This document shows, piece by piece, positions 253-59,807 of a stretch of 59,807 bases of DNA. The first letter of the stretch is position 1, and each line of letters begins with the position of its first letter. The stretch lies in the IMG/VR virus record IMGVR_UViG_3300045988_174840; one strand, given 5' to 3'. A program made the translations under genes and the position numbers. This DNA comes from a virus. Below the pieces are notes generated by a model. It ran no database searches, was not told the DNA's origin, and worked only from the letters and a program-made list of their open reading frames with translations.

Positions 253-726
253 CTATAAGAAATTTTTTAATACTTCCATGATATTGTTTACATCAAAACT
301 ATTTTTGCCCCACTCTTTTCTATTGCGTTCCTCGTCATCAAAAAGCCATCCCTTACAATCAACGACAGTACTTTTTGGTGTACCATAGTTTACAATTTTG
401 ATTTCATCCCATTCAATACTAGGCAAGTGTTTTTCAAGCCATGCAAGTTTTACACTTGTTACCGCCGTATTATAAGAAGCTGACCCGCTTTTACTTAACC
501 AGCTTACAATACCGATTCTATAGCCATTAGCTTGTAACTTGTGAAGCACTCTTGCGAAAGCTGAAAAATTGAAAAGCGGTTTTGCTACTTTGTATGGTGT
601 AGTATCTTCTTTTTCCAAATATGCTAACCAGTTTTCCACGCCGTAGAAATTAGCAAGTGTGCCGTCCATGTCAAAATAAATAGTTCCCTTTGTGTTCATC
701 ATTTCTTTAATTGTATTATTCATCAT
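253..726 (-). CDS. HAD-superfamily 5'(3')-deoxyribonucleotidase-like hydrolase
   Basis: Track ORF 253..738. HAD motif I FDMDGTLA (DxDxT) lies near the N-terminus. The track start is TTG; the first ATG (MMNNTIK) at 726 follows an AAGGGAAGGA ribosome-binding site. Confidence 0.6.
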   Translation of the reverse strand: MMNNTIKEMMNTKGTIYFDMDGTLANFYGVENWLAYLEKEDTTPYKVAKPLFNFSAFARVLHKLQANGYRIGIVSWLSKSGSASYNTAVTSVKLAWLEKHLPSIEWDEIKIVNYGTPKSTVVDCKGWLFDDEERNRKEWGKNSFDVNNIMEVLKNFL

Positions 727-844
727 AATATCTACCAATCCTTCCCTTTTTGATTATCGCAAGTGCTTTGCGATTGACCGACCAATGATTATGTGAACCT
801 TGCTTTGTTTCTGTTTTTTAAGTTTAATGTCCTTCGACAAGTAT

Positions 845-873
845 ATATTACTACATCTTAGCGAAAAAGTCAA
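845..873 (-). promoter_or_regulatory. sigma-A-type promoter (TTGACT-17-TAATAT) for the HAD hydrolase gene, followed by a leader with a 7-bp hairpin
   Basis: Reverse complement reads TTGACT, a 17-nt spacer, then TAATAT. The leader contains the hairpin ATCGCAA-AGCAC-TTGCGAT. Confidence 0.5.
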
Positions 874-1170
874 ATTTATTTTTTATTGTGCAAAGTGATG
901 AAAATTTTACATAAAAATCATAGTATTTTTGTTAAAATGTACAAATGTAGAAAAATAATGCGGATTTAGGCAGATTTTTGTGCATTTTGCTATCTTAAAT
1001 ATCACATATTGTGTTTCTGCGTGTCAAAAAAGGTATGATTTTTTATTAAAATTTCGTCACTTTGCACAAGGTGTAGAAAATCTTAGCATTATTTTATTAA
1101 ATTTTGTACATTTTGTACACCATGTCAAAAAATGGGATTTTTTTAATTTATTTTTTGTGCAAATTGCCTA

Positions 1171-1200
1171 TTGACAAAAAGGTGCTAGATGTGGTATAAT
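1171..1200 (+). promoter_or_regulatory. consensus promoter P1 (TTGACA-17-TGG-TATAAT, extended -10)
   Basis: Exact TTGACA and TATAAT hexamers with a 17-nt spacer and TGn. The promoter reads into the GC hairpin CGGGGTGCCCCG at 1208..1219. Confidence 0.7.
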
Positions 1201-1245
1201 AAAATTTCGGGGTGCCCCGACCCCGAACGGAATTCGTCTACTTCC

Positions 1246-1274
1246 ATTATAGCATACTCGAGCCACCTTGTCAA
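1246..1274 (-). promoter_or_regulatory. consensus promoter P2 on the minus strand (TTGACA-17-TATAAT), left arm of an inverted repeat
   Basis: Reverse complement of 1246..1274 reads TTGACA, a 17-nt spacer, then TATAAT. It is convergent with P1 across the 1208..1219 hairpin. Confidence 0.65.
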
Positions 1275-1332
1275 GAGAAAAAATGCACAAATTTTAGGAT
1301 AAAAATTTTGAAAAATTTGTGCATTTTTTCTC

Positions 1333-1361
1333 TTGACAAAATGTCTCAACTATGCTATAAT
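1333..1361 (+). promoter_or_regulatory. consensus promoter P3 (TTGACA-17-TATAAT), right arm of the inverted repeat
   Basis: Exact hexamers with a 17-nt spacer. The predicted transcript starts in the GC-rich hairpin 1366..1398, which contains the perfect palindrome GCTCGCGAGC. Confidence 0.7.
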
Positions 1362-1445
1362 GGAAGGCTCGGCTCGCATGGGCTGCTCGCGAGCCGGCTA
1401 TTATAACACATTTTCCGCGACTTGTCAACCCCTTTTAAAAAATTT

Positions 1446-1522
1446 TTTTATTTTCGTCATTTTGCATAAAAATAAAATTCAGCATTTTGCACAAATTTTA
1501 TTTTCGTCATTTTGCATAAAAA
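1446..1522. repeat. two copies of a 27-bp direct repeat TTTTATTTTCGTCATTTTGCATAAAAA, 50 bp apart
   Basis: Identical copies at 1446..1472 and 1496..1522. A related copy (TTTCGTCACTTTGCACAA) sits at ~1052..1073. Confidence 0.8.
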
Positions 1523-1549
1523 AACAAAAGCCTAAATTATATAGGCTTT
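1515..1549 (-). terminator. Rho-independent terminator for minus-strand gene 1568..1774; may also stop plus-strand transcripts from P1 and P3
   Basis: Hairpin AAAGCCTA-AATTATA-TAGGCTTT, followed on the minus strand by TGTTTTTTTATG. Confidence 0.65.
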
Positions 1550-1567
1550 ATCATTACTCTTATTAAG

Positions 1568-1774
1568 TTATTTAGTATTACATTTACATTTTGCTTCTGT
1601 AATAATTTCTGTCTGATTAATTTCTGTATTGCTATTGTTATTAAAAAAATGGTCTGAGCCTTTTGCTAAAAAAACTATTATAGTTGCTAGAATCATTCCG
1701 ATTATAAGAAAACCAATTAGACCATTCAAATCTCTTCTAAATTCTTCATCTGTTGGGGCTTTTTCTTCTCTCAT
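1568..1774 (-). CDS. small membrane protein (68 aa, one transmembrane helix)
   Basis: Track ORF with the hydrophobic segment LIGFLIIGMILATIIVFLA. Confidence 0.45.
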   Translation of the reverse strand: MREEKAPTDEEFRRDLNGLIGFLIIGMILATIIVFLAKGSDHFFNNNSNTEINQTEIITEAKCKCNTK

Positions 1775-1820
1775 TTATTTTTTCCTTTTTTTAGAGTTGT
1801 GAGTTGTGAATTTCATGGAC

Positions 1821-2000
1821 TTAATTATTATTAAGTCCATGAAACTTTTTATTTTCTCGTTTCATTATTGTTTCATAAGCAATCTCTACTATTTCTTTTG
1901 AAATATTTTGATTTTCTGCTATTTTACAGAACATAATCACTGTATCATTTTCAAACCCTTTTACTTTAATTACATTATCCATCATCTCTGTTCTTGTCAT
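1821..2000 (-). CDS. small early protein (59 aa, MTRTEMMDNVIKVKGFENDTVIMFCKIAE...)
   Basis: The first 7 codons of track ORF 1821..2021 lie inside the conserved promoter leader. The true ATG at 2000 follows an AAGAGAGG ribosome-binding site. Confidence 0.5.
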   Translation of the reverse strand: MTRTEMMDNVIKVKGFENDTVIMFCKIAENQNISKEIVEIAYETIMKRENKKFHGLNNN

Positions 2001-2032
2001 TATTGCTTTCCTCTCTTTCATTTGATAATGTT

Positions 2033-2061
2033 ATTATACTATAAAGTCGGCTACTTGTCAA
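2033..2061 (-). promoter_or_regulatory. early promoter-leader cassette copy (TTGACA-17-TATAAT plus leader AACATTATCAAATGAAAGAGAGG)
   Basis: Reverse complement shows the consensus hexamers. The leader is shared with cassette copies at 2956, 3438, 3784, 4170, 4921 and 5977. Confidence 0.7.
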
Positions 2062-2159
2062 CTACATTTTTTAAATGTTTAATTGCTTTTTCTCATTTTT
2101 ACTATCTTTTTCTTTTTTCTTTGTCGCATGAGTTTTTAAAACTCATGCGACTTTTACTA

Positions 2160-2285
2160 TTATTTTATTACTACTGCGTAAGCAAGTTCTACTGTTGTAT
2201 TTGAAACTTCACTTTCTGCTAATTTACAAAACCAGATTGTCAGTTCATCTTCAAAGCCTCTTGCTTTAATCACATTGTCCGTCAT
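2160..2285 (-). CDS. truncated paralog (41 aa, MTDNVIKARGFEDELTIWFCKLAESEV...) of the 1821..2000 protein
   Basis: Manual translation. It shares DNVIKxxGFExxxxIxFCKxAE with the neighbouring gene and has its own promoter at 2318..2346. Confidence 0.4.
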   Translation of the reverse strand: MTDNVIKARGFEDELTIWFCKLAESEVSNTTVELAYAVVIK

Positions 2286-2317
2286 TTCTTTTTTTACTGT
2301 TGTCTTTGACTGTTTTT

Positions 2318-2346
2318 ATATTATCACAAAAGCTTGATTTTGTCAA
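2318..2346 (-). promoter_or_regulatory. promoter (TTGACA-17-TAATAT) for the 41-aa paralog
   Basis: Hexamers found on the reverse complement. Confidence 0.5.
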
Positions 2347-2364
2347 GTTTTTGTGATATTTTTT

Positions 2365-2697
2365 TTACTTTTTTTGTTTAAAATTACTATGTAATTCAAT
2401 TACTTTACCGCAGTTGTCACAAGTCCAATAGTAAATTGTTCCGACATTTTTTATATAGTCTGCGTTTGCAAATCTCCATTTATTTCCGCACTCTACACAG
2501 TAGCCATTGTTCCAATTTACTTTATCGGATGATTGTTCAATTTTAATTAGCCATGTAAAAGTGCATCCTATTAAAAGAGCTAAGATAATGCCAATTACTG
2601 TTTTAATGATTCGATTTCCATTTTCATAAAAGATGTTTACCATAAATCCGCCAACGAATATTGTCATAAGAATCGTTACTAAAATTGTTCTAATCAT
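2365..2697 (-). CDS. membrane protein with two transmembrane helices and a C-terminal CxxC...CxxC zinc ribbon (110 aa)
   Basis: Hydrophobic N-terminal half, then CVECGN...CDNCGK. A promoter TTGACA-17-TATTAT lies upstream at ~2730-2760. Confidence 0.5.
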   Translation of the reverse strand: MIRTILVTILMTIFVGGFMVNIFYENGNRIIKTVIGIILALLIGCTFTWLIKIEQSSDKVNWNNGYCVECGNKWRFANADYIKNVGTIYYWTCDNCGKVIELHSNFKQKK

Positions 2698-2720
2698 TTT
2701 TTAATTCCTTCTTTCTTTAT

Positions 2721-2921
2721 TTATTTATTATTACTATCTCTCTTAACTATATTTATAATATCACATTTTTCGGTTTTTGTCAAGCCTTTTTCCTCTTTTA
2801 AAATTCTATTGATTTGGTTTTTAATATCCTTCAAATCTTCAAGACTGCAATAAACTTTATCACCCCAACCGCCTTTAATTGTATAAGGATAACTCTTATC
2901 ATCACTTTTTTCTACTGTCAT
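2721..2921 (-). CDS. small early protein (66 aa, MTVEKSDDKSYPYTIKGGWGDKVYC...)
   Basis: The first 21 codons of track ORF 2721..2984 are the translated promoter cassette. The true ATG at 2921 follows the conserved leader and an AGAGAGAGG ribosome-binding site. Confidence 0.5.
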   Translation of the reverse strand: MTVEKSDDKSYPYTIKGGWGDKVYCSLEDLKDIKNQINRILKEEKGLTKTEKCDIINIVKRDSNNK

Positions 2922-2955
2922 TTTTATCAACCTCTCTCTTTCATTTGATAATGTT

Positions 2956-2984
2956 ATTATACTATAGGTCTTAACAAAAGTCAA
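2956..2984 (-). promoter_or_regulatory. early promoter-leader cassette copy (TTGACT-17-TATAAT). The -35 sits inside hairpin GGTCTTAAC-AAAA-GTCAAGACC, followed on the plus strand by TATTTTATTTTTT
   Basis: Seen on the reverse complement. The hairpin plus T-run reads as a terminator on the plus strand. Confidence 0.65.
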
Positions 2985-3002
2985 GACCTATTTTATTTTT
3001 TC

Positions 3003-3404
3003 TCAAATTTTTGTTATTCCTCTGTCTTTCAAATATTCACAAAAACTATCAGAGTCAAGCATTTTCGCAATGTCTTTCATTGAAACGTTCATTTTGTTAT
3101 ACACACAACGTACTTCAATAGGTTTAAATTTTTTTTCTGTAATAGCTGTTGATAAAGAATCTTCTACATTGCTTAATCGAACAACTCTTTTTTTAAAGAA
3201 ATTTTTTGAAATTTCAGCATTTATAAATAAACCTTTTTCAACTAAATTAATCAGTTCGTCAAAAGTGTTGATTGTAAAGTTCCTTGTCTTTGCTTCTGCT
3301 TCTTCTGGGGTAAGGTATCTTACGTGTTCCCAGATACTTGTATCAACAAAGTTTTTTCGACCCTCTATTCTGTACTTGAATCTATAATCATAAACTTCTT
3401 TCAT
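3003..3404 (-). CDS. hypothetical early protein (133 aa)
   Basis: Track ORF 3003..3413 starts at TTG. The ATG (MKEVYDYRF) at 3404 follows the leader AAGAAAGAGGTTGATAAAA. Confidence 0.5.
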   Translation of the reverse strand: MKEVYDYRFKYRIEGRKNFVDTSIWEHVRYLTPEEAEAKTRNFTINTFDELINLVEKGLFINAEISKNFFKKRVVRLSNVEDSLSTAITEKKFKPIEVRCVYNKMNVSMKDIAKMLDSDSFCEYLKDRGITKI

Positions 3405-3437
3405 TTTTATCAACCTCTTTCTTTATTTTCTATATTT

Positions 3438-3466
3438 ATTATACAGTATCTATTGACTTTTGTCAA
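3438..3466 (-). promoter_or_regulatory. early promoter-leader cassette copy (TTGACA-17-TATAAT)
   Basis: Reverse complement. The same downstream element TCAAGACCTATTTTATTTTTT occurs as at 2984. Confidence 0.65.
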
Positions 3467-3481
3467 GACCTATTTTATTTT

Positions 3482-3742
3482 TTATTTTGGAAGGATAACC
3501 TCAGCTTCGACAGGTACTACTTTCTCAGATGCCATAAAAGCTTTCATATATCCCGTAGCAAGATTAACCGCAATGAATCTACCTTTTTGTCTTTCCAAGA
3601 AAAAACCGCTATTCCTATCAATAATCATGTACAACCCGATTTCATCAATACCACCTCTTTGACTAATACTGAAAAAAGTTTTTCCTATTGTCAAGTCATT
3701 GATGCAAATTTCTGTTGCTTTTTTATCATAGTTGATTTTCAT
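3482..3742 (-). CDS. hypothetical early protein (86 aa, MKINYDKKATEICIND...)
   Basis: Track ORF with the cassette promoter 3784..3812 upstream. Confidence 0.5.
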   Translation of the reverse strand: MKINYDKKATEICINDLTIGKTFFSISQRGGIDEIGLYMIIDRNSGFFLERQKGRFIAVNLATGYMKAFMASEKVVPVEAEVILPK

Positions 3743-3783
3743 TTTTGTTTTCCTCTCTTTTTCTTTCTTTTATTTCTGTATTT

Positions 3784-3812
3784 ATTATATCATGTAGGGG
3801 CTGAAATGTCAA
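3784..3812 (-). promoter_or_regulatory. early promoter cassette copy (TTGACA-17-TATAAT). The -35 is embedded in hairpin AGGGGCTGAAATGTCAACCCCT (3796..3817)
   Basis: Reverse complement. The plus strand shows the hairpin followed by ATTTATTTTTTAAT. Confidence 0.65.
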
Positions 3813-3826
3813 CCCCTATTTATTTT

Positions 3827-4135
3827 TTAATGATTAAACCGCAGATAATTTTTAATCCAGTTTTTACCAAACTCTTTTTCTAACTGTTTTTCCTCTTCTG
3901 GGTTCGTTTCCATGATTGAGATTTTCATAATTGAATCCCAGTCCATAGTTGTAAACCACGTTCCCTCTTTCATGCCTTTACTAAAGTGAAAAGTGTCAAG
4001 AATAAAATCCATTGTTTCCTGTCGTTTAATTGTTTTCATACATTCTTCTAAAGAAAGAACCCGATTGTCAAAAACTGGTTTAGTTTCAAAACCTGTTACT
4101 TTCCATCCGCTAATTTTACTTTTAATTTTTAACAT
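3827..4135 (-). CDS. hypothetical early protein (102 aa)
   Basis: Track ORF 3827..4144 starts at TTG. The ATG (MLKIKSKISGW) follows the leader AAAAAGAGAGGTTGATAAAA. Confidence 0.5.
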   Translation of the reverse strand: MLKIKSKISGWKVTGFETKPVFDNRVLSLEECMKTIKRQETMDFILDTFHFSKGMKEGTWFTTMDWDSIMKISIMETNPEEEKQLEKEFGKNWIKNYLRFNH

Positions 4136-4169
4136 TTTTATCAACCTCTCTTTTTCATTTGATAATATT

Positions 4170-4198
4170 ATTATACACTACTTTTGAAAATCTGTCAA
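4170..4198 (-). promoter_or_regulatory. early promoter-leader cassette copy (TTGACA-17-TATAAT)
   Basis: Reverse complement of TCATTTGATAATATTATTATACACTAC...TGTCAAGAC. Confidence 0.65.
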
Positions 4199-4300
4199 GA
4201 CTTTTTTATTTTTTTCTTAACTATTTTTTTTACTTTCAACCATGTTTTTTGTTGTTGCTTTTTTATCATAATTAATTTTCATTTTAATTACCTCTCTTTC

Positions 4301-4483
4301 TTATTTAATTTCTTTAAAGATACTTTCATCTGTGGCATTACATAACTTATTATTTACGTTATACTTAGCATAAAGCCACTTTTTACAATCCCATTTTAGC
4401 GGACAATGATAACAAGTTGTAGTAAAAGCCGTGGTTTCCATCGGAATTGCAAGAAATATCTTTTTAAGTTTTTTAGTTATCAT
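4301..4483 (-). CDS. hypothetical early protein (60 aa, Cys-containing)
   Basis: Track ORF with a strong AAGGAAGGAG ribosome-binding site. Promoter 4517..4545 lies upstream. Confidence 0.5.
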   Translation of the reverse strand: MITKKLKKIFLAIPMETTAFTTTCYHCPLKWDCKKWLYAKYNVNNKLCNATDESIFKEIK

Positions 4484-4516
4484 ATTATTTTTTTCTCCTT
4501 CCTTTTAACTATCTTT

Positions 4517-4545
4517 ATAATACCATATTAAAATTATTTTGTCAA
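4517..4545 (-). promoter_or_regulatory. promoter (TTGACA-17-TATTAT)
   Basis: Hexamers on the reverse complement. Confidence 0.5.
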
Positions 4546-4624
4546 TCCCCTTTTATAAAAAATTATAAAAAAGGAAGATTTTTTATCTTCCTTTTACTTT
4601 TGTTTTATTCTTGTTTTTTTATTT

Positions 4625-4786
4625 TTATCTTAATAATCTTAATAAATAGTTATTTTCATGCTCTTTCAAAAAAGCGTTAATTTCTTCTATTGTTTCAGCG
4701 TAAATCTCGCCTGTCTCAGTGTCTACAAGCATCAATTTTTTACTTCCTAAAAATAATCCTAAATCTAACATATTTAAGCCCTCCAT
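4625..4786 (-). CDS. small hypothetical protein (53 aa, MEGLNMLDLGLFLGSKKLMLVDTETGEIYAETIEE...)
   Basis: Manual translation of an ORF below the track cutoff. Its start overlaps the stop of the upstream 39-aa ORF (TAATG). Confidence 0.3.
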   Translation of the reverse strand: MEGLNMLDLGLFLGSKKLMLVDTETGEIYAETIEEINAFLKEHENNYLLRLLR

Positions 4787-4905
4787 TAAGAAATTTTTAC
4801 CAGATAACCGTTTGTATTTTTTTCTACTGAAAAAATGTATTGATTATCTTTTAAGTATTTTTTTACAGTTTCAAATGCTTTTCGAGTTGTCAGTAACATT
4901 GTCAT
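4786..4905 (-). CDS. small hypothetical protein (39 aa, MTMLLTTRKAFETVKKYLKDNQYIFSVEKN...)
   Basis: Manual translation. It follows cassette leader ...AAAGAGAGGTAAAGGGAT and a promoter near 4921..4970. Confidence 0.3.
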   Translation of the reverse strand: MTMLLTTRKAFETVKKYLKDNQYIFSVEKNTNGYLVKIS

Positions 4906-5083
4906 ATCCCTTTACCTCTCTTTCATTTGATAATACTATGATACTATATTTCTTTGCTTTTGTCAAGCATTTTAGGAAAATTTTCTAAAGATTTTTTTAT
5001 GCGGATTTCCGCTGGAAAAACCTGAACTTAAAGAGATTATAGGCGAACCGACTCCAGAACTATCAAGTTCGGGAGTCCCTTTT

Positions 5084-5254
5084 TTATTTAAGGAATGATT
5101 CTAAAGCCTTGTAGCATAAATCAGCGTTTTCTTTATCTTTTATGCTAGTACCTTTAGAAAAGTCATTCATAGCGGCTGTCAGTAGTTCTGGTACTGAAAT
5201 AAATTCAAATACCAACTGTAAAGCCGCCAATTCATTAAGATTGACTTTTTTCAT
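5084..5254 (-). CDS. small hypothetical protein (56 aa, MKKVNLNELAALQLVFEFISVPELL...)
   Basis: Manual translation. An AAAGGAGATAAG ribosome-binding site and a TATAAT -10 lie upstream. Confidence 0.35.
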   Translation of the reverse strand: MKKVNLNELAALQLVFEFISVPELLTAAMNDFSKGTSIKDKENADLCYKALESFLK

Positions 5255-5400
5255 CGGTTCTTTCTTATCTCCTTTTTAAATATTTTATTTTCTTTACATT
5301 ATTATTATATCAAATTTTTTAATAAAAATCAAAAAAGATACTTTATCTAAACAAGCAAAGAAAAGGGCTGAACTTATTCCGCCCTTTTCCCGCTTCCCCG

Positions 5401-5667
5401 CTATCCTATTATCTCTGCATTTGTAATAATATCATCTGTCACGTTGTCAGTCCCTAAAGAATCCATGTATAATTTAACTCTATCTTTTGCTTTAAAACCG
5501 TCTCCATAGAAACTCCAAACATGTCCGTAGCTATCCATAACCACCACCTCATCATTAAAAGAGCTAATCACTTTAGCTTCTCTTGTATACTTAGTAAAGC
5601 TACCAAAACCGCAAATACTACTTAAAACTGCACTTACTGCTAATCCTAAAATCACCTTTTTCATCAT
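5401..5667 (-). CDS. secreted or lipoprotein-like small protein (signal peptide MMKKVILGLAVSAVLSSIC)
   Basis: Track ORF 5401..5679 starts at TTG. The first ATG at 5667 is followed by a hydrophobic signal sequence. Confidence 0.45.
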   Translation of the reverse strand: MMKKVILGLAVSAVLSSICGFGSFTKYTREAKVISSFNDEVVVMDSYGHVWSFYGDGFKAKDRVKLYMDSLGTDNVTDDIITNAEIIG

Positions 5668-5669
5668 AT

Positions 5670-5948
5670 CTAACTCCAACCTCTTTCTTTCTTAATCTTT
5701 TCGTATCTTTCTTTTGCTTCTTTTTCAATCTTCTTTTTGTCATACATTCTAATTTTCATTCTAGTATATCCGTCTCTTTTTAAACACCAACGTTCTGTTT
5801 TACGTTGTACTACTATTTTATCAATAGCTCTTTGCTGTACCTCTTGCTTATGAGTGTTGTAATATTTGATACTCTCAATTTCTAATAAAGTACTTATTGG
5901 TCTGTACTTATTGGTTACACTAAACAAAGTGCATTGAATTGTTATCAT
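5670..5948 (-). CDS. hypothetical basic protein (92 aa, K/E/R-rich C-terminus)
   Basis: Track ORF. Cassette promoter 5977..6005 and leader AAAAGAGAGGTGATAAGAAG lie upstream. Confidence 0.5.
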   Translation of the reverse strand: MITIQCTLFSVTNKYRPISTLLEIESIKYYNTHKQEVQQRAIDKIVVQRKTERWCLKRDGYTRMKIRMYDKKKIEKEAKERYEKIKKERGWS

Positions 5949-5976
5949 CTTCTTATCACCTCTCTTTTCAAGTATT

Positions 5977-6005
5977 ATTATACTACCTTATTATACCATT
6001 GTCAA
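5977..6005 (-). promoter_or_regulatory. early promoter-leader cassette copy (TTGACA-17-TATAAT)
   Basis: Reverse complement reads CTTGACAATGGTATAATAAGGTAGTATAATAATACTTGAAAAGAGAGG. Confidence 0.65.
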
Positions 6006-6412
6006 GCGTTTATTTATAGTATTTTTATTCGTCTTAATGCATATTTATTTATGTATATTTATTCACATTGCTAGTTAGCTTTACATATTTTATATTTATA
6101 TCCTTTTATAAATTTTATAAATTAAATTATAAAATAAAATATAATATATCAGTTATTGCATTGTTTTACTTAATATTTATTTAAGCATATCTTTCTTATT
6201 ATACTATTATGTTATTCTATTATAACTATTATAAGACAAGAGTCTTACGTTGAATACACTATTATTATTATTGTAACACTTCTATAAAAGTAATTACATA
6301 ATATAAAATATTATTATACTTATACTTTGTATGTATTGTTATAGTATAATATTATTATACTGTTATTATTATTATTATTATTATCTTTCCTTTATCTTAA
6401 GCTTAATCTCTC

Positions 6413-6441
6413 ATTATAACACCTTTAGCTCATTCTGTCAA
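6413..6441 (-). promoter_or_regulatory. consensus promoter (TTGACA-17-TATAAT) reading leftward into the 6000-6400 AT-rich non-coding block
   Basis: Reverse complement reads TGTCTATTGACAGAATGAGCTAAAGGTGTTATAATGAGAG. The -35 lies within a TGTC-N4-GACA palindrome. Confidence 0.65.
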
Positions 6442-6720
6442 TAGACATTTTACACAATTTTTTCTTTTGATTTTCGTGCAGATTGACCATTGACATTTCT
6501 TGTCTATTGACATTTTGTACAAAAATCAAATTATATTTTTGTATACTTTTACCATTGACAGGACTTGTCAATAGACATAATGCACAAAATTTTCCTTGCA
6601 TTTTTGTGCAATTTTACCTATTGACAAACTCATTTTAGGAAAATATCTTTGTGCATTTTTTACAAAAATTTAGCCAAAAATTTGTGCATTTTGTCTATTG
6701 ACAGGCTTCTCGGAGCGTTG
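6420..6720. repeat. cluster of 7 YTATTGACA sites in both orientations, including two TGTC-N4-GACA palindromes, interleaved with TTTGTGCA motifs
   Basis: CTGTCAATAGACA at ~6436 and ~6566. CTATTGACA at ~6503, ~6618 and ~6695. CCATTGACA at ~6487 and ~6553. Confidence 0.75.
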
Positions 6721-7261
6721 CGAAAGTATACGCTCCGATGGTAGATGGCAAGCTACCAATAGCCAATAAAATTCTAATCTTCTTGCTTTATTTTAATTAT
6801 TTAAAGAATTTATTTTATTAGTTTAACTCTTTCTCCTCTTTATTTAAAATAATGTGTTCAAAATCCTTCTGAACAAAAAACATATCCTCTTTGGAAAATG
6901 ATTTGAAAAATTATTTGTTAGGCGGTGTTTTGTTGCTTCTTACTCAAAAGAAAAGACCAATCTACAGACCATACCCAAACATAATACCCGGGCTATATTA
7001 AAGGATTAAAATTTTTTACTTTTATAAAAAGATAGTGTTCTCCACAATTCTCTCTCCAAAAAAATTTTTAAATCTAAAAATTGAAGAAAATGAAGAAGAA
7101 AAAATTGAAATAATTCTCCTTCCAAAAATTTTAGAATCTAAGAATCTAAAATAAAAACTTTAAGGATTCTAAATATTAAAAAATTTTCTTCTTCTTCTTC
7201 TTTAAAAAATGCGTGAGTGTCAAGTTAATCTCCGAAATACGTTTAAAAGCTTAGTAATCAT

Positions 7262-55905: not shown

Positions 55906-57322
55906 TTATTCTCCTTCCATACCATATCTAACATGCTCTAGTTTCATATCTGAACCATTGACGTCAATAATCTTGTAGAGCTGATGGGTAGGGGTATGTT
56001 TATACGATTTAGTCTGAAATGTATCTCCACGCCTAAACCCAGTACACATTACTTTTGTTCCTCTTTGAAACCAGCCTTTTTCCATAACTTTTTTAGTTCC
56101 ATCTTCTTGCTTTTCAGAAATTTGTCTCCCAAACATAGCAAAGTAATCTTTTGTAAATTTTACATTAACAACTCCAGAAGTTGTTAATAATGATATTGAA
56201 GAACGAGCATCATTTTTACTGATTACAGTGCCAATGATTTTATAAGTCTTATAAATAGGGATTTCTTTTCCATTTCTTTTGAAAAAATAATCTACAACAG
56301 GCTCTTCGGGTAATTTAGAAAAATCTGAAATTCCATACTTTAAAGTATCAATATTTATTAATTCATGTGGATGATAATAAAAACATAAGCTTTCCATTTC
56401 CCACGCGGAAATATTTCCTTTAGCATATTTATTCCAAGAGTCAAGAAATAAAGCCTCATTAAATTCTTTTAATACTGTCTGTTGATTCTCTTTAAGCCAA
56501 TCTCTAGCTCTATCCATGCCTTTTTGATACTTTTTATCCCATTTGTTTTGTAAAATACAAACGCATCCGTTTATCACTTCAAGGTCTTCCATATCGTATC
56601 TTTGATTGTAGAATTTTTCACAAGCATCATCAAAGACATAATATTTTCCAACTTTTTTCTCAGTTTTTAGATACTTATTAAAGAAAAATAATCTTTTCAT
56701 ACTATCTAAAGAAGGTGGAATTAAGTCTTTTTGAATTAAACCATTAAAGTTTTGTAGCGTTAATTTCTTTTTTGGTTCACTAACAACAGACAGATAATAT
56801 ATCATTACAAGCACTCTTGGTTCAACATTTAATTCTTTTGCCCATTCTAATTCCAGTTTATCAAAAGCTCCGCTCTTTATTAAGGAAATCATTGCAGATT
56901 TATTTAAAGGACATCTTATCATAAAGTCTTTAATGCTTTTATATGGTCTACCAGAAAAAATCTGCTCAATAATTGGTGCACCTACATTACTCAATGCTTT
57001 CATTCCAAAAAGAATTTCGTTGTTTTCAACATCTGGCTTAAAGCTATAGTCAGATTTATTTATATCAACTAAAGAAATTTTTATTCCTCTTGATAAAATA
57101 TCTCCAATAGCCTTAGCTATTTTACTATAATCCGTAGATTTTTCTTTCTTTTTACTTTCTTCTGTTTCTTCTTCATTTTCAATATTATCTTCTTCTAAGG
57201 CTCCACTATTTACAATTAAACACGCGGTATTCCAATAGATAGGATTCCATCTTGTGGCTATGTATATAGTTTGAAATCCTATGAAAGAGTAAGCCAGGGC
57301 ATGTATGCATAATTTAAAATTA
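55906..57322 (-). CDS. dnaE: DNA polymerase III alpha subunit (DnaE-type), C-terminal exon or segment
   Basis: The open frame extends upstream of track ORF 55906..57003 to the stop at 57334. It encodes ...FNFKLCIHALAYSFIGFQTIYIATRWNPIYWNTACL (cf. DnaE GYGFNKSHSAAYALVSYQT..HYPAEFMAA). The HhH region ALSNVGAPIIEQI...SLIKSGAFD and a C-terminal OB-fold follow. Confidence 0.7.
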
Positions 57323-58539
57323 CTGACTATTTTTTACAGACGTTGTAGTGAGATTTTGGCTTTTCTCTTGTCTGCACACTATTTCCCAAAACGTATCAAT
57401 AGTTTCAGTACTCCCCGTCTAACCAGGGATAGTCGATACAACATTTTTCTTTTAATAGATTTATTTATTATCTCTAAGAGGGTATTTATATTTTTCTTTT
57501 TTATGAGAACGTCCTGCGTTAATATTTTTAATTGTTGCATAGCTTTTATTCCATTTTTTTGCGATATCTTTTAAAGATAAATCTGTTTCTAAAATATCTT
57601 TTATAATACCTTGAATCCAGATTTCATTTTTAGCTTTATTACCACCTTTATCACAAAGAGGGTAGTTATCCTTATCACTATAAAAATATTTTCCTGTATT
57701 TATCATAGATAAAAATCCAGCTGATTTAATTCCAAAATCTTCTTGAATTGTTTTATATTTTTCTCCGCTTTTAATTCTATCTTTTATTTCTCTAATTTCT
57801 TTTTGAGAAAAGCGGCTTTTAGAATTTTTCTTTAAAGGATAATCAAACTCTTCATTAAAATAATTTGTTCCAGTATTTATATTAACTAAAAACGTTCTTT
57901 TTAACTTAGGAAAATAAATTTTTTCAATATCATCATATTCTTCATCATTCATTAGACGATTTTGGATATCAATAATTTCTTCTTTTTTAAAGAGTTTAGA
58001 TCGGTTTAATTTTTCTTCATACGTTAAAGGTTTTCTTTTATATCCTTGTCCGCCTAAAGTAATATTATATCCATTTTCATCTTTTAAAGAATGATAATAT
58101 TGAATAAAATAAATTTCTCTTTCGTCAATATATTCTTGAGATTCTCCATCAGCAATCTCTTCAAGAATATCAAAATTAAAATTATCCCAACCATATTTTC
58201 TTATGGCTGCGTGAAATGGCAAATTATAGCCAGAAGTTTTTTCATTAAAAGACTCACTTTTATGTCCATTTTTTCTTTTTTGAACATTATTAGTTTGTCC
58301 GATATAAATTTTACCATTTGTTTTATTTGTAAATTTATAAATATAGTACATAATATTCTCCTTATACATTGTTTTACTATTCTCATGTATAACTGAAAAA
58401 TACTATACCTCTATTAAAGAAATTTGTCACGAGATTTAACCCTCGTTAGCAATTAAAACCATATTTGCCAAATATGTAAATGTTTTAATTACCCCACTGA
58501 TAAGTGGTTAAGTGTGTAAGCACCATTCACACAATGCTA
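57323..58539 (-). other. ~1.2-kb intervening sequence interrupting dnaE; candidate group I intron carrying a homing endonuclease gene
   Basis: The upstream frame ends in-frame with ...GYSF then SIV-stop. The downstream frame has no nearby ATG or ribosome-binding site. The proposed junction, with the 5' exon ending in T and the intron ending in G, restores GYSFNFKLCIHALAY. Confidence 0.5.
57461..58351 (-). CDS. GIY-YIG homing endonuclease, free-standing inside the dnaE intervening sequence
   Basis: N-terminal YYIYKFTNKTNGKIYIGQT...KRKNGH (GIY-YIG motif). Perfect AAGGAG ribosome-binding site 6 nt before the second ATG at 58351; track ORF starts 6 codons earlier. Confidence 0.8.
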   Translation of the reverse strand: MYYIYKFTNKTNGKIYIGQTNNVQKRKNGHKSESFNEKTSGYNLPFHAAIRKYGWDNFNFDILEEIADGESQEYIDEREIYFIQYYHSLKDENGYNITLGGQGYKRKPLTYEEKLNRSKLFKKEEIIDIQNRLMNDEEYDDIEKIYFPKLKRTFLVNINTGTNYFNEEFDYPLKKNSKSRFSQKEIREIKDRIKSGEKYKTIQEDFGIKSAGFLSMINTGKYFYSDKDNYPLCDKGGNKAKNEIWIQGIIKDILETDLSLKDIAKKWNKSYATIKNINAGRSHKKEKYKYPLRDNK

Positions 58540-59807
58540 AAGCTATATCCCATCTGCGGACCTATGCCATATTTCCATACATAGTCTCCGAGTTCTTTTC
58601 TTTTAGCTTGTTCAATAACCTTCTTTTTCAATTCTGGAATTTTACTCATTTGTTTTTTACCAACAATTTTTCTCGCGGTGTTGGCTTCAGATAACTTAAA
58701 ACCGCAAATATCCTTATCCATTAACATACTCATTAATTGTTCTTGACTTGGCGGAACACCATAAGACTTTAAGAAATAAGGTTCTAATGTTTTCATCTCT
58801 TGAGGAGATAACCCCTCTCTTCTCATTTCTTGATACCAAAGATCAATATTTTTTTTATATCTTACATATTTTTCCATTGGCGTTTCTTGACCTTTTTCAC
58901 TAGTCATAAGTCTCATTAATCCATTAGCATCTGACATTTCAATTATTGAGGCTGGCTTAATTTTTTTTGCAGCCTGACTGCCTACATCGCTATCAAATTG
59001 AAAAATATTTAAAACTGAGTTGTTTTGCAGTGCTTTCCAACATTTTTTATCTTCGATAGGTAAAACACTTGGATGAAAATATTTTTCATACACTTCTTTT
59101 AAAGATAAATCTGATTCAATTTCATTATTAGCCTGTAGTAATTTAATTGTTTCTGCTAATTTATCCTGGACTTCAGTTACTAAGAAGTCATATTTTGTCA
59201 TACCTGCTGCTTCGCACATATGAAGATCCCATTGCGTAATAATTTCTCCTTTAGGAGTCCGCATAAAACATCCAAATTCATATGGGTCTTCATCAAAAAG
59301 GATTACTCCAGAAGCATGAGAACTCCTTTTGTTTACTAACCCTTCAATAGCAATCATAATATCTAATAAGCCAGGATATTTTTCTACCTCATTAGTAAAC
59401 ATCTTAATAGGCTTTCTATCTTTATCTGGGTTACCATTAATGGCATCTGATAAAGACCATAAAAAACCTCTTTCACTTGGAATTAAAGAAGATAAAAATT
59501 GAGCAGTGTCAACATCAATTCCGTCTGGATACTCTTCACTTCTATATCCGCGACAAGCAGTTAAAATAGTTGATCGAGTACCTTCAGTTCCAAAAGTGGC
59601 TATCAACGTACATCCTAAATTTTTTCGAGATAAAACATCAATATCTTTTTTAAAATTTTTTCCGCGTTCTTCCTTTATTTTCTTTAAAATTAAAGGTCTT
59701 TTACTTGGACTTAAATCTAAATCTATATCTCCAAGCTCTATACGCTCTTTATTTAAATATCTCCAGAAAGGAAGCTCCCATTCAATCGGATCTAGTTGAG
59801 TAATTCC
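58540..59807 (-). CDS. dnaE: DNA polymerase III alpha subunit (DnaE-type), upstream exon or segment, 5' partial (continues beyond the window)
   Basis: Track ORF 58527..59606 (IATFGTEGTRSTILTACRGY...) stays open in the same frame to the window edge at 59807. It ends at the conserved GYGF position. Confidence 0.7.

Follow-up and report, generated by a model that had tools for sequence, protein, structure and literature searches.

The non-coding region at positions 880-1560 of a 59,807-nucleotide viral sequence (IMG/VR record IMGVR_UViG_3300045988_174840; this whole stretch is called the window below) is made up of two tandem copies of a conserved cassette, which share one promoter (P2) and lie upstream of a nucleotidase gene. 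This conclusion is well supported, and 70 units related to the cassette were found in uncultured phage contigs and in contigs from gut metagenome-assembled genomes (MAGs). The function of the region, called the hub here, can be described more tentatively. In the reading that we favor, the doubled cassette would act as a gate on transcription, working by mutual interference between facing promoters and by cis-antisense RNA, and its repeated motifs would form an operator array for a phage regulator. We would put the probability of this reading at somewhat less than one half, roughly 45%.

The hub occupies the interval between the nucleotidase gene (253-738, minus strand) and a gene for a 68-amino acid protein (1568-1774, minus strand). 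It contains four promoters of the sigma-70/sigma-A type within 258 bp, each of which matches the TTGACA and TATAAT hexamers at 12 of 12 positions and carries a TG extended -10. P1 (1171..1200, plus strand, TTGACA-18-TGgTATAAT) faces P2 (1246..1274, minus strand, TTGACA-17-TGcTATAAT) across one GC hairpin, and P3 (1333..1361, plus strand, TTGACA-17-TGcTATAAT) converges with P4 (1400..1428, minus strand, TTGACA-17-TGtTATAAT) across a second. The order P1> hairpin 1 <P2 | P3> hairpin 2 <P4 is thus that of two convergent pairs placed back to back, with P2 and P3 as divergent partners. P2 belongs to both cassettes, acting on the gene side of one and as sense promoter in the next. P1 is antisense to the flanking genes and has the leader AAAATTTCGGGG; P3 is of the same P1 type, has the leader GGAAGGCTCGG, and gives a score of 51.7 bits with covariance model R1 over 1356-1405. 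P4 is of the P2 type and points in the gene direction. A GG directly follows the -10 element of P2 and of P3, as it does in most units of the family. The window contains 12 instances of the exact 17-spaced promoter pattern, where shuffled sequences would lead one to expect 0.05.

The original prediction described three exact TTGACA-17-TATAAT promoters in this region. All three are real matches at 12 of 12 positions, but the spacer of P1 is 18 nt, and P4 was missed, so that the symmetry of the arrangement was missed as well. P1 and P2 are convergent, as had been stated, but the hairpin between them is a 22-nt structure with an 8-bp stem and a 6-nt loop (hairpin 1, 1206..1227), and the 12 bp reported earlier are its inner part, CGGGGTGCCCCG. 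The broader description of the region as non-coding and dense in consensus promoters is supported, and these promoters are conserved. About 10 operator-like motif copies are present too, but the hub is not singular, being two copies of a cassette that recurs at several intergenic sites in the phage family.

Read in the gene direction, the hub begins with the intrinsic terminator of the upstream 68-amino acid gene (1549-1527, minus strand), which forms the right-hand boundary of the cassette region. Three motif copies follow, and then P4>, hairpin 2, <P3 | P2>, hairpin 1 and <P1. Gene-ward of P1 are three weaker promoter-like sites at 1128, 1027 and 873, all on the minus strand, and then the nucleotidase gene. 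The first of these, TTGACA-16-CAAAAT (1101..1128, 10/12), is the divergent partner of P1 and is called Pg'; the gap of 42 bp between the -35 hexamers of P1 and Pg' is unlike the usual spacing in the family. The second, TTGACA-18-GATATT with a TG (998..1027, 10/12), also points in the gene direction, and the weakest, TTGACT-17-TAATAT (845..873, 9/12), is nearest to the gene.

The absence of a credible plus-strand gene, claimed from the start, is confirmed, and the plus strand could yield only short structured RNAs. The small open reading frames (ORFs) of the hub are 31-77 codons long and overlap the promoters, and most of them are broken in three close relatives by insertions or deletions of 10-11, 13 and 25-26 nt. 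A 64-codon ORF at 980..1174 is free of such changes in the relatives and was discounted solely because it has a GTG start without a preceding Shine-Dalgarno sequence.

Face-to-face promoter pairs with an intervening GC hairpin were also found in the related loci L001, L002, L010, L014, L016, L018, L019 and L020/21. A search of viral contigs for convergent promoters that are both perfect returned at least 120 loci, and about 30 of 121 perfect pairs among the matches listed are of the GC-hairpin type, nearly all of them in large contigs of 28-48% GC; 18 gut-MAG contigs carry such pairs as well. Aligned by their conserved leader, the units show the motif described below, followed by TTGACA-17-(TG)nTATAAT, the leader GGAAATTYCGG, and a hairpin (stem 8-10 bp, loop 8-11 nt). 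Next come, in most units, ATTATA-17-TGTCAA (a promoter on the other strand) and another motif, and then an A-tract and the terminator of the neighboring gene. The opposing promoter matches at 11 or more of 12 positions in 57 of the 70 units. Spacing within the unit is rigid, the facing -10 elements being 35-39 nt apart in 55 of 70 units and 36-39 nt apart in 54, and a divergent promoter in the gene direction, read as that of the downstream gene (Pg), lies at a gap of 58-59 bp (between -35 hexamers) in 37 of 62. Orientation is constant as well: in 68 of 70 units the P1-type promoter runs antisense to the neighboring genes, with most ORFs that have a ribosome-binding site on the opposite strand, and along the P1-type strand the flanks are rich in pyrimidines in 65 of 67 and in 63 of 66 cases. 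Coding strand was judged from such ORFs and from purine skew; open-frame length was dropped as a measure because it left 44 of 70 units ambiguous. Searching the window with a covariance model of the unit returned the two hub copies alone, and since both belong to the model's training set, that search shows only that the window holds no further copies.

No relevant match to the hub or to the consensus cassette was found among 50,697 cultured-phage records, and PHROGs gave no annotation for proteins that recur beside cassettes. Rfam and targeted literature searching likewise gave no match for the cassette. Its components, namely consensus promoters, interference, antisense RNA and repeated operators, are of known kinds, and it is the rigid three-promoter cassette and its doubling that appear to be undescribed.

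Promoters of this quality that seem to lead to very short products raise the thought that the cassettes might be sinks for RNA polymerase, titrating sigma-A holoenzyme away from the genes of the host as phage DNA accumulates. Every hub promoter has both perfect hexamers and the TG extended -10, and the GG after the -10 is shared by P2, P3 and most units. The number of cassettes per genome is small, however, compared to the dozens of equally strong promoters that drive real early genes, and titration would leave the covariation of the hairpin (below), the rigid spacing, the fixed orientation and the operator-like motif unexplained. We regard this explanation as very improbable.

The hairpin of the unit is conserved as a structure. 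Pairing is retained in 87% of cells, compared to 66.5% in shuffles and 30-50% in slid controls, and 44 cells show double changes where shuffles give 15.9. A second hairpin followed by a T-run lies 30-200 nt downstream of the P1-type -10 element in 56 of 70 units (median 83 nt). These properties bear on the possibility that the cassettes are genes for trans-acting small structured RNAs. The P1-type RNA would then be some 70-120 nt long, with a 5' GC hairpin, an A-rich linker or a sequence antisense to the P2-type promoter, and the shared terminator, and such RNAs or their duplexes might serve as decoys or sponges for host RNases, RNA-binding proteins or defense sensors. The units do look complete for this purpose, with a perfect promoter, a covarying hairpin starting from about +1 and the terminator-like hairpin with its T-run in the same 56 of 70, and minimal units that lack the sense promoter exist. 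Furthermore, predicted read-through RNAs from P1 or P4 contain a hairpin of about 53 bp, which folds at about -100 kcal/mol (z = -12.4); this structure is specific to the hub and keeps the idea alive. Several results nevertheless point the other way. No unpaired sequence is conserved beyond what the promoter and motif demand, and the interior of a hairpin has been inverted in one relative (L002) and partly deleted in another (L019) with nothing else altered. G-U pairs, which could reveal the RNA strand under selection, show no strand asymmetry; in the long palindrome of the hub, three of five arm mismatches become G-U pairs in the minus-strand RNA, which is too few to mean anything. Finally, Rfam 15 offers no family for the hub: microRNA-precursor models alone match, at 21-44 bits against gathering scores of 56-200, and they do so because of the palindrome. 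Taken together, trans-acting RNA genes seem unlikely.

A related proposal is that the cassette is an undescribed, self-contained phage device whose output is the complementary GC-hairpin RNAs themselves, including the 53-bp hub hairpin, and not the regulation of the next gene. Such RNAs could provide primers or R-loops for replication from multiple origins, or abundant decoys, double-stranded or hairpin-shaped, against host RNases or RNA-sensing defenses, and in that case two or three polymerases assembled in a specific complex would account for the rigid geometry of 37-38 nt and 58-59 bp. We consider this proposal rather unlikely.

Conservation of the hub at its own site is a matter of close relationship. 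The whole hub is kept in L001, L002 and L019, whose nucleotidase proteins are 92-96% identical to that of the window. All 48 hexamer positions are invariant in these four genomes and the changes cluster in the transcribed inserts, a record that rests on about 12 mutational events and is weak evidence alone. The most substituted stretch, with changes at 6 of 18 positions, is the extra 18 nt between hairpin 1 and the -10 of P2 (1228..1245). Hairpin 2 (1367..1398, stem GGCTCGC/GCGAGCC with its neighbors) has a 13-nt deletion in L019, and in L002 its interior is inverted. The inversion is a clean one of 18-30 bp, seen when L002 3307-3402 is compared to L001 and to window positions 1366-1395, and its end points fall within the inverted repeat GGCTCG/CGAGCC. 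These comparisons indicate that constraint falls on the promoters and not on the sequence of the RNA.

The original prediction was to be refuted if the palindrome were absent from related phages with the same flanking genes, and on this point the evidence is mixed. The palindrome is present in relatives at 92-96% identity and absent in those at 83-85%, where the entire hub is missing upstream of the nucleotidase gene (L003-L018). At wider range, L068, L097 and L159 have a cassette of this design ahead of the nucleotidase gene, at only 39-54% protein identity, which argues that the position has been inherited and is not random. Further gene families also recur beside cassettes.

This distribution invites the view that the hub is a functionless by-product, either of early promoters of one family that recombination duplicated or inverted, or of a small mobile element resembling a miniature inverted-repeat transposable element (MITE), with a recent and merely tolerated palindrome. 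The arms that hold P2 and P3 are 91% identical, spacers included; the hub sits at its exact site in only four closely related genomes and is gone at 83-85% identity; and a hairpin has undergone inversion and deletion. In addition, the ends of the cassette, motif plus promoter, resemble terminal inverted repeats, a resemblance that amounts to no more than the shared motif and promoter consensus. The sequence beside the site differs as well in the 83-85% relatives, and therefore no exact empty site can be defined. Against a by-product stand the rigid spacings (36-39 nt and 58-59 bp) held across contigs of 28-48% GC, the constant orientation relative to genes, and the conserved synteny with the nucleotidase and other gene families, which speaks against free mobility. 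L001, L002 and L019 also share an insertion of 10-11 bp in one arm of the palindrome, equivalent to one helical turn. Copies of the cassette differ in their cores, unlike the products of recent transposition or the near-identical copies expected of a MITE. On balance a functionless origin of the hub appears improbable.

The imperfect palindrome itself was correctly described at the outset, with P2 and P3 divergent inside it. It spans 126 bp (1241..1366) and holds both promoters, their motifs and an AT-rich center with TTTTAGGAT; the two arms (1241-1295 and 1312-1366), each of 55 nt, show 91% complementarity and flank a 16-nt gap, with the center at 1303.5, close to the 1303 first given. The junction forms a palindrome because P2 is an inverted copy of P3. 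The gap between the two -35 hexamers is 58 bp and the family mode is 58-59 bp, which identifies P2|P3 as the standard divergent pair of the family; the palindrome is a more symmetrical form of that pair. Modelled as single-stranded DNA, it has a folding energy of -44.2 kcal/mol (z = -13.6), the -35 and -10 elements being in the stem and pointing away from the loop, as one would want of an Frpo/sso-type single-strand promoter in which the arms fold into a restored duplex promoter that primes complementary-strand synthesis or early expression. The extended palindrome is lineage-specific, however, and in standard cassettes symmetry extends no further than the motif. The convergent promoter arms are non-complementary in their spacers. 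Moreover, the phage is a tailed, double-stranded DNA type with terminase and portal genes. A single-strand promoter is accordingly an extremely improbable explanation. Two other structural candidates were rejected. For a protelomerase or telomere site, the palindrome is imperfect and promoter-built, and no such enzyme is present among the annotated ORFs of the window. N4-type hairpin promoters were dismissed in view of loops of 8-11 nt and of the failure to identify a virion RNA polymerase.

Many cassette promoters are directly abutted by a 17-bp motif, TTTGTGCAnnnTGnCTA, and TTTYGGGAW lies between the promoters of the divergent pair. The core TTTGTGCA occurs 13 times in the window where 2.57 are expected, and 9 of the 13 are at two places. 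A weight matrix built from the 22 bp upstream of P1-type promoters in related loci gives hits of at least 12.7 bits only at 1149, 1275, 1311, 1454 and 1479, all in the hub, and at 6442, 6507, 6572 and 6676. In the hub, the copy abutting the -35 of P1 (TATTTTTTGTGCAAATTGCCTA, 1149..1170, plus strand) scores 14.1 bits, that abutting P2 (TAAAATTTGTGCATTTTTTCTC, 1275..1296, minus strand) 19.0 bits, and that abutting P3 (1311..1332, plus strand) 18.3 bits. Three more copies with 25-bp spacing lie on the minus strand at 1449..1519 (1449-1469, 1474-1494 and 1499-1519); close relatives have two. Other copies lack a promoter: TTGTGCAAAGTGATGAAAATT, of the TTTGTGCA type (886..906, plus strand), forms an inverted pair with the copy at 1049..1069 (minus strand; AAATTTCGTCACTTTGCACAA on the plus strand), which is the reference copy of the direct-repeat family D1 to which both belong. 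A further copy, TTTGTGCATTTTGCTAT (977..993, plus strand), lies at the center of the left-hand imperfect palindrome 886-931 / 1025-1069. The roughly 10 copies of the hub look like an operator array.

A candidate for the regulator that would bind the motif is a family of proteins of 126-150 amino acids encoded directly downstream of 18 of the 69 units examined for neighbors (L056, L061, L062, L068, L110, L111 and others). The C-terminus of these proteins looks winged-helix-like by eye; the family has no PHROG match and is not encoded in the window.

Repeats of this kind beside strong promoters could also belong to a replication origin activated by transcription. Origins that depend on a promoter transcript are known from T7, T4 (oriF and oriG) and ColE1, and the origin of lactococcal phage c2 lies in an early-promoter region. 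Like the c2 origin, the T7 primary origin and T4 oriF/oriG, the hub combines strong promoters in a non-coding stretch, predicted untranslated transcripts and nearby repeats. The divergent P2|P3 pair might unwind the AT-rich center of the palindrome, GC-rich primer RNAs or R-loops could form on both strands, and the three motif copies at 25-bp spacing, or the roughly 10 copies overall, could be iterons; the hub is also next to nucleotide-metabolism genes, with replication genes at the far end of the window. Unlike those origins, the cassette occurs several times per genome in an orientation fixed relative to genes, and the hub lacks a pronounced AT-rich unwinding element, its flanks having 24-27% GC compared to 16% at 6001-6400. 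Searches of the small neighboring proteins with Pfam and PHROGs revealed no initiator-like protein. For an iteron-type origin, then, the repeats are present, but the flank composition, the neighbors and the multi-copy cassette all disagree. There is also a better candidate elsewhere in the window, a second large non-coding region at 6001-6760, where a 400-bp stretch of 16% GC is packed with short AT repeats. A perfect promoter on the minus strand (6441..6413) fires into it. Six copies of the motif (TTTGTGCA...CTATTGACA) lie at 6442-6697 and are followed by GC hairpins at 6700-6760. That region looks like a set of iterons with an unwinding element, or else a master operator region. An origin in the hub is therefore quite unlikely.

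The proposed working of the cassette as a transcription gate begins with its geometry. Open complexes cover DNA to about +20. With facing -10 elements 37-38 nt apart, the start sites would be about 25 bp apart and the two open complexes would overlap, so that host RNA polymerase of the sigma-A type should bind the facing promoters in a mutually exclusive fashion. A polymerase leaving one promoter would have finished the hairpin with 3-8 nt still to go to the AT-rich -10 of the facing promoter, and a hairpin-dependent pause or weak termination would then fall over that promoter and occlude it. For hairpin 1 the predicted outcome in one direction is termination: transcribed from P2, it scans as an intrinsic terminator because the T-run ATTTTATTAT follows on the minus strand, giving a predicted P2 RNA of about 40 nt. 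The two short RNAs of a cassette would be complementary hairpins and hence a cis-antisense pair, and at the level of sequence the facing -10 elements (36-39 nt apart in 54 of 70 units) and the covarying hairpin agree with the overlapping convergent units and complementary structured RNAs of such a pair. A cis-antisense contribution would explain why pairing is kept while sequence drifts, and why an inversion was tolerated. In this model the cassette would form a gate or insulator between the strongly expressed early genes upstream and the next gene, one of DNA metabolism. As long as the antisense promoter was active, transcription arriving from upstream or started at the sense promoter would be blocked. 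Silencing could come from a phage regulator that uses the motif array as its operators, and a second way of lifting the block could be the sigma-like protein of the phage itself. The doubled cassette of the hub would be a tighter or redundant gate.

Several observations weigh against this proposal. If the sole job of the cassette is to stop read-through, it is difficult to see why it should contain a strong sense promoter, and 13 of the 70 units have no sense promoter at all. Close promoters of equal strength are reported to interfere only about 1.2- to 1.7-fold in the absence of pausing (PMC6593788), and of the four hairpin directions in the hub only one, hairpin 1 from P2, scans as a proper terminator; hairpin 1 from P1 and hairpin 2 in either direction have no contiguous U-tract, their tails being CGGAAUUC, GGCUAUUAUA and GAGCCUUCCAUUAUA. 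Pfam and PHROGs searches of the small neighboring proteins in the window identified no regulator gene. The sample of units is biased, since for many loci a perfect match in each of the two promoters was a condition of retrieval, and the mutational record behind the invariant hexamers is short. Moreover, promoter activity, start sites, pausing and termination are all predicted from sequence.

The transcription gate has partial precedents in the control regions of coliphages. Strong convergent promoters a short distance apart are found in 186 (pR/pL), P2 (Pe/Pc) and lambda (PR/PRE with tR1), and such promoters interfere by occlusion, by collision and by removal of promoter-bound polymerases (PMC6593788). 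In lambda, the weak terminator tR1 pauses polymerase over PRE, resulting in pause-enhanced occlusion (PMC6593788), and a role like that of tR1 may be played here by the GC hairpin next to the opposing -10. Distances between start sites in the systems compared are 65 bp in a synthetic construct and 320-340 bp for PR/PRE and pR/pE (PMC6593788). The coliphage start sites are tens to hundreds of bp apart, whereas those of the cassette would be about 25 bp apart with the hairpin alone between them. Furthermore, the coliphage switch promoters drive protein-coding operons and occur once per genome, whereas the antisense partner in the cassette has no gene and the arrangement is found at several intergenic sites.

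A second set of precedents comes from cis-antisense elements, which include sar/Pant of P22, the countertranscripts of pT181 and pIP501, RNA I/RNA II of ColE1, and prgQ/prgX of pCF10. As in these elements, a short hairpin RNA would be made from a strong promoter opposite a sense leader. The sequence of a countertranscript hairpin is free to drift because complementarity is automatic, which fits the cassettes, where pairing is kept and sequence is not. In contrast to the known countertranscripts, the cassette has an overlap of no more than about 25-30 nt and one hairpin, its RNA would target neither an attenuator nor a ribosome-binding site, the sense promoter is lacking in the 13 units already mentioned, and RNA pairing is a prediction from sequence.

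The operator part of the proposal is closest to the logic of phage SPbeta. There the master repressor MrpR binds a repeated 15-bp operator, SPBRE, at about 10 early promoters (PMC10516654). The TTTGTGCA motif is likewise repeated at many intergenic early promoters, and the lineages are related, with terminase 33-44% identical to those of SPbeta-like, E3 and EF1 phages and with syntenic genes of replication and nucleotide metabolism. The shared sequence of SPbeta sits inside a TAGACA-N17-TATAAT promoter (in the three upstream regions inspected), whereas the motif described here abuts the -35 on its upstream side. The SPbeta promoter sequence differs, and the likeness to SPBRE/MrpR is one of logic only; no face-to-face pairs with GC hairpins were found in SPbeta 1-50,000 and 84,417-134,416.

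The window belongs to a family of large, uncultured gut phages of the SPbeta/E3/EF1-like kind, an assignment that is well supported. It has a GC content of 30% and encodes a portal protein and a PHROG "sigma factor", and its terminase is 44% identical to those of Enterococcus phage H1 and Geobacillus phage E3 and 33% identical to those of Bacillus phages FADO, 2S-4 and PJN02. Genes for a split DNA polymerase III alpha, NrdDG, a dUTPase and a Holliday-junction resolvase are present, and the DNA-metabolism genes include counterparts of SPbeta yorL (polymerase), yorS (nucleotidase), yosS (dUTPase) and yotM (resolvase). The relatives of the phage are exclusively uncultured contigs of 80-196 kb and gut-MAG contigs, the latter mostly binned as Clostridia, and Clostridia are the probable host group. 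A scan of the genome collection for hosts returned only mis-binned gut-MAG contigs and no isolates.

The polymerase III alpha-like gene (55906-59606, minus strand) is seen as two ORFs, 58527-59606 and 55906-57003, interrupted by a GIY-YIG homing-endonuclease ORF (57461-58369), and its N-terminal portion must fall past the end of the window. No tRNA or tmRNA genes were found in the window. The early region at 1568-6000 is a series of small minus-strand genes, most of which have their own consensus or near-consensus promoter. At least three of them share a common promoter and 5' untranslated block (...tcatttgataatgttattatactata...), several are followed by a terminator-like hairpin, and the array resembles those of host-takeover genes. 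The 68-amino acid protein encoded just upstream of the hub is membrane-like and specific to the window, and the proteins beside other cassettes are 100-240 amino acids long; a type I toxin-antitoxin system or a leader peptide was rejected on these grounds. CRISPR-like solitary repeats and anti-CRISPR RNAs were rejected as the cores are not repeated, and a retron because there is no reverse transcriptase.

Two different kinds of face-to-face promoter module were seen among the related and scanned loci. In L003-L017 (at about 2210-2670 in locus coordinates), an insert of 73-74 nt separates a perfect promoter from an opposing TATACT promoter and contains two tandem GC terminator-like hairpins immediately after the perfect promoter; compensatory stem changes distinguish L007 from L008 (GGAC/GTCC and GAAC/GTTC). 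An unrelated family of perfect face-to-face pairs is found in contigs of 39-49% GC (L031, L040, L045, L049, L057, L066, L071, L073, L075, L076, L086, L091, L095, L102, L103, L127, L142, L145 and L146). Its inserts are AT-rich and 45-48 nt long, with TTACG...GTAA-type repeats in spacers and inserts, and it may be the operator-bearing switch region of another phage group.

If the cassette is the transcription gate proposed here, it would be a compact, modular and repeated element for the control of transcription traffic, assembled solely from a hairpin, an operator motif and promoters of consensus sequence. None of the studied convergent-promoter switches with which it was compared has start sites as close to each other as those predicted here. 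Such an element would widen the known range of transcriptional interference and could be used directly as a building block in synthetic circuits. With promoters of canonical type, the main predictions are open to in vitro tests that need no cultured host. For phage biology, the combination of TTGACA-N17-TATAAT, GGAAATTYCGG, hairpin and ATTATA-N17-TGTCAA would provide a signature for a large clade of uncultured gut phages, one that would mark the boundaries between their early and DNA-metabolism gene modules.

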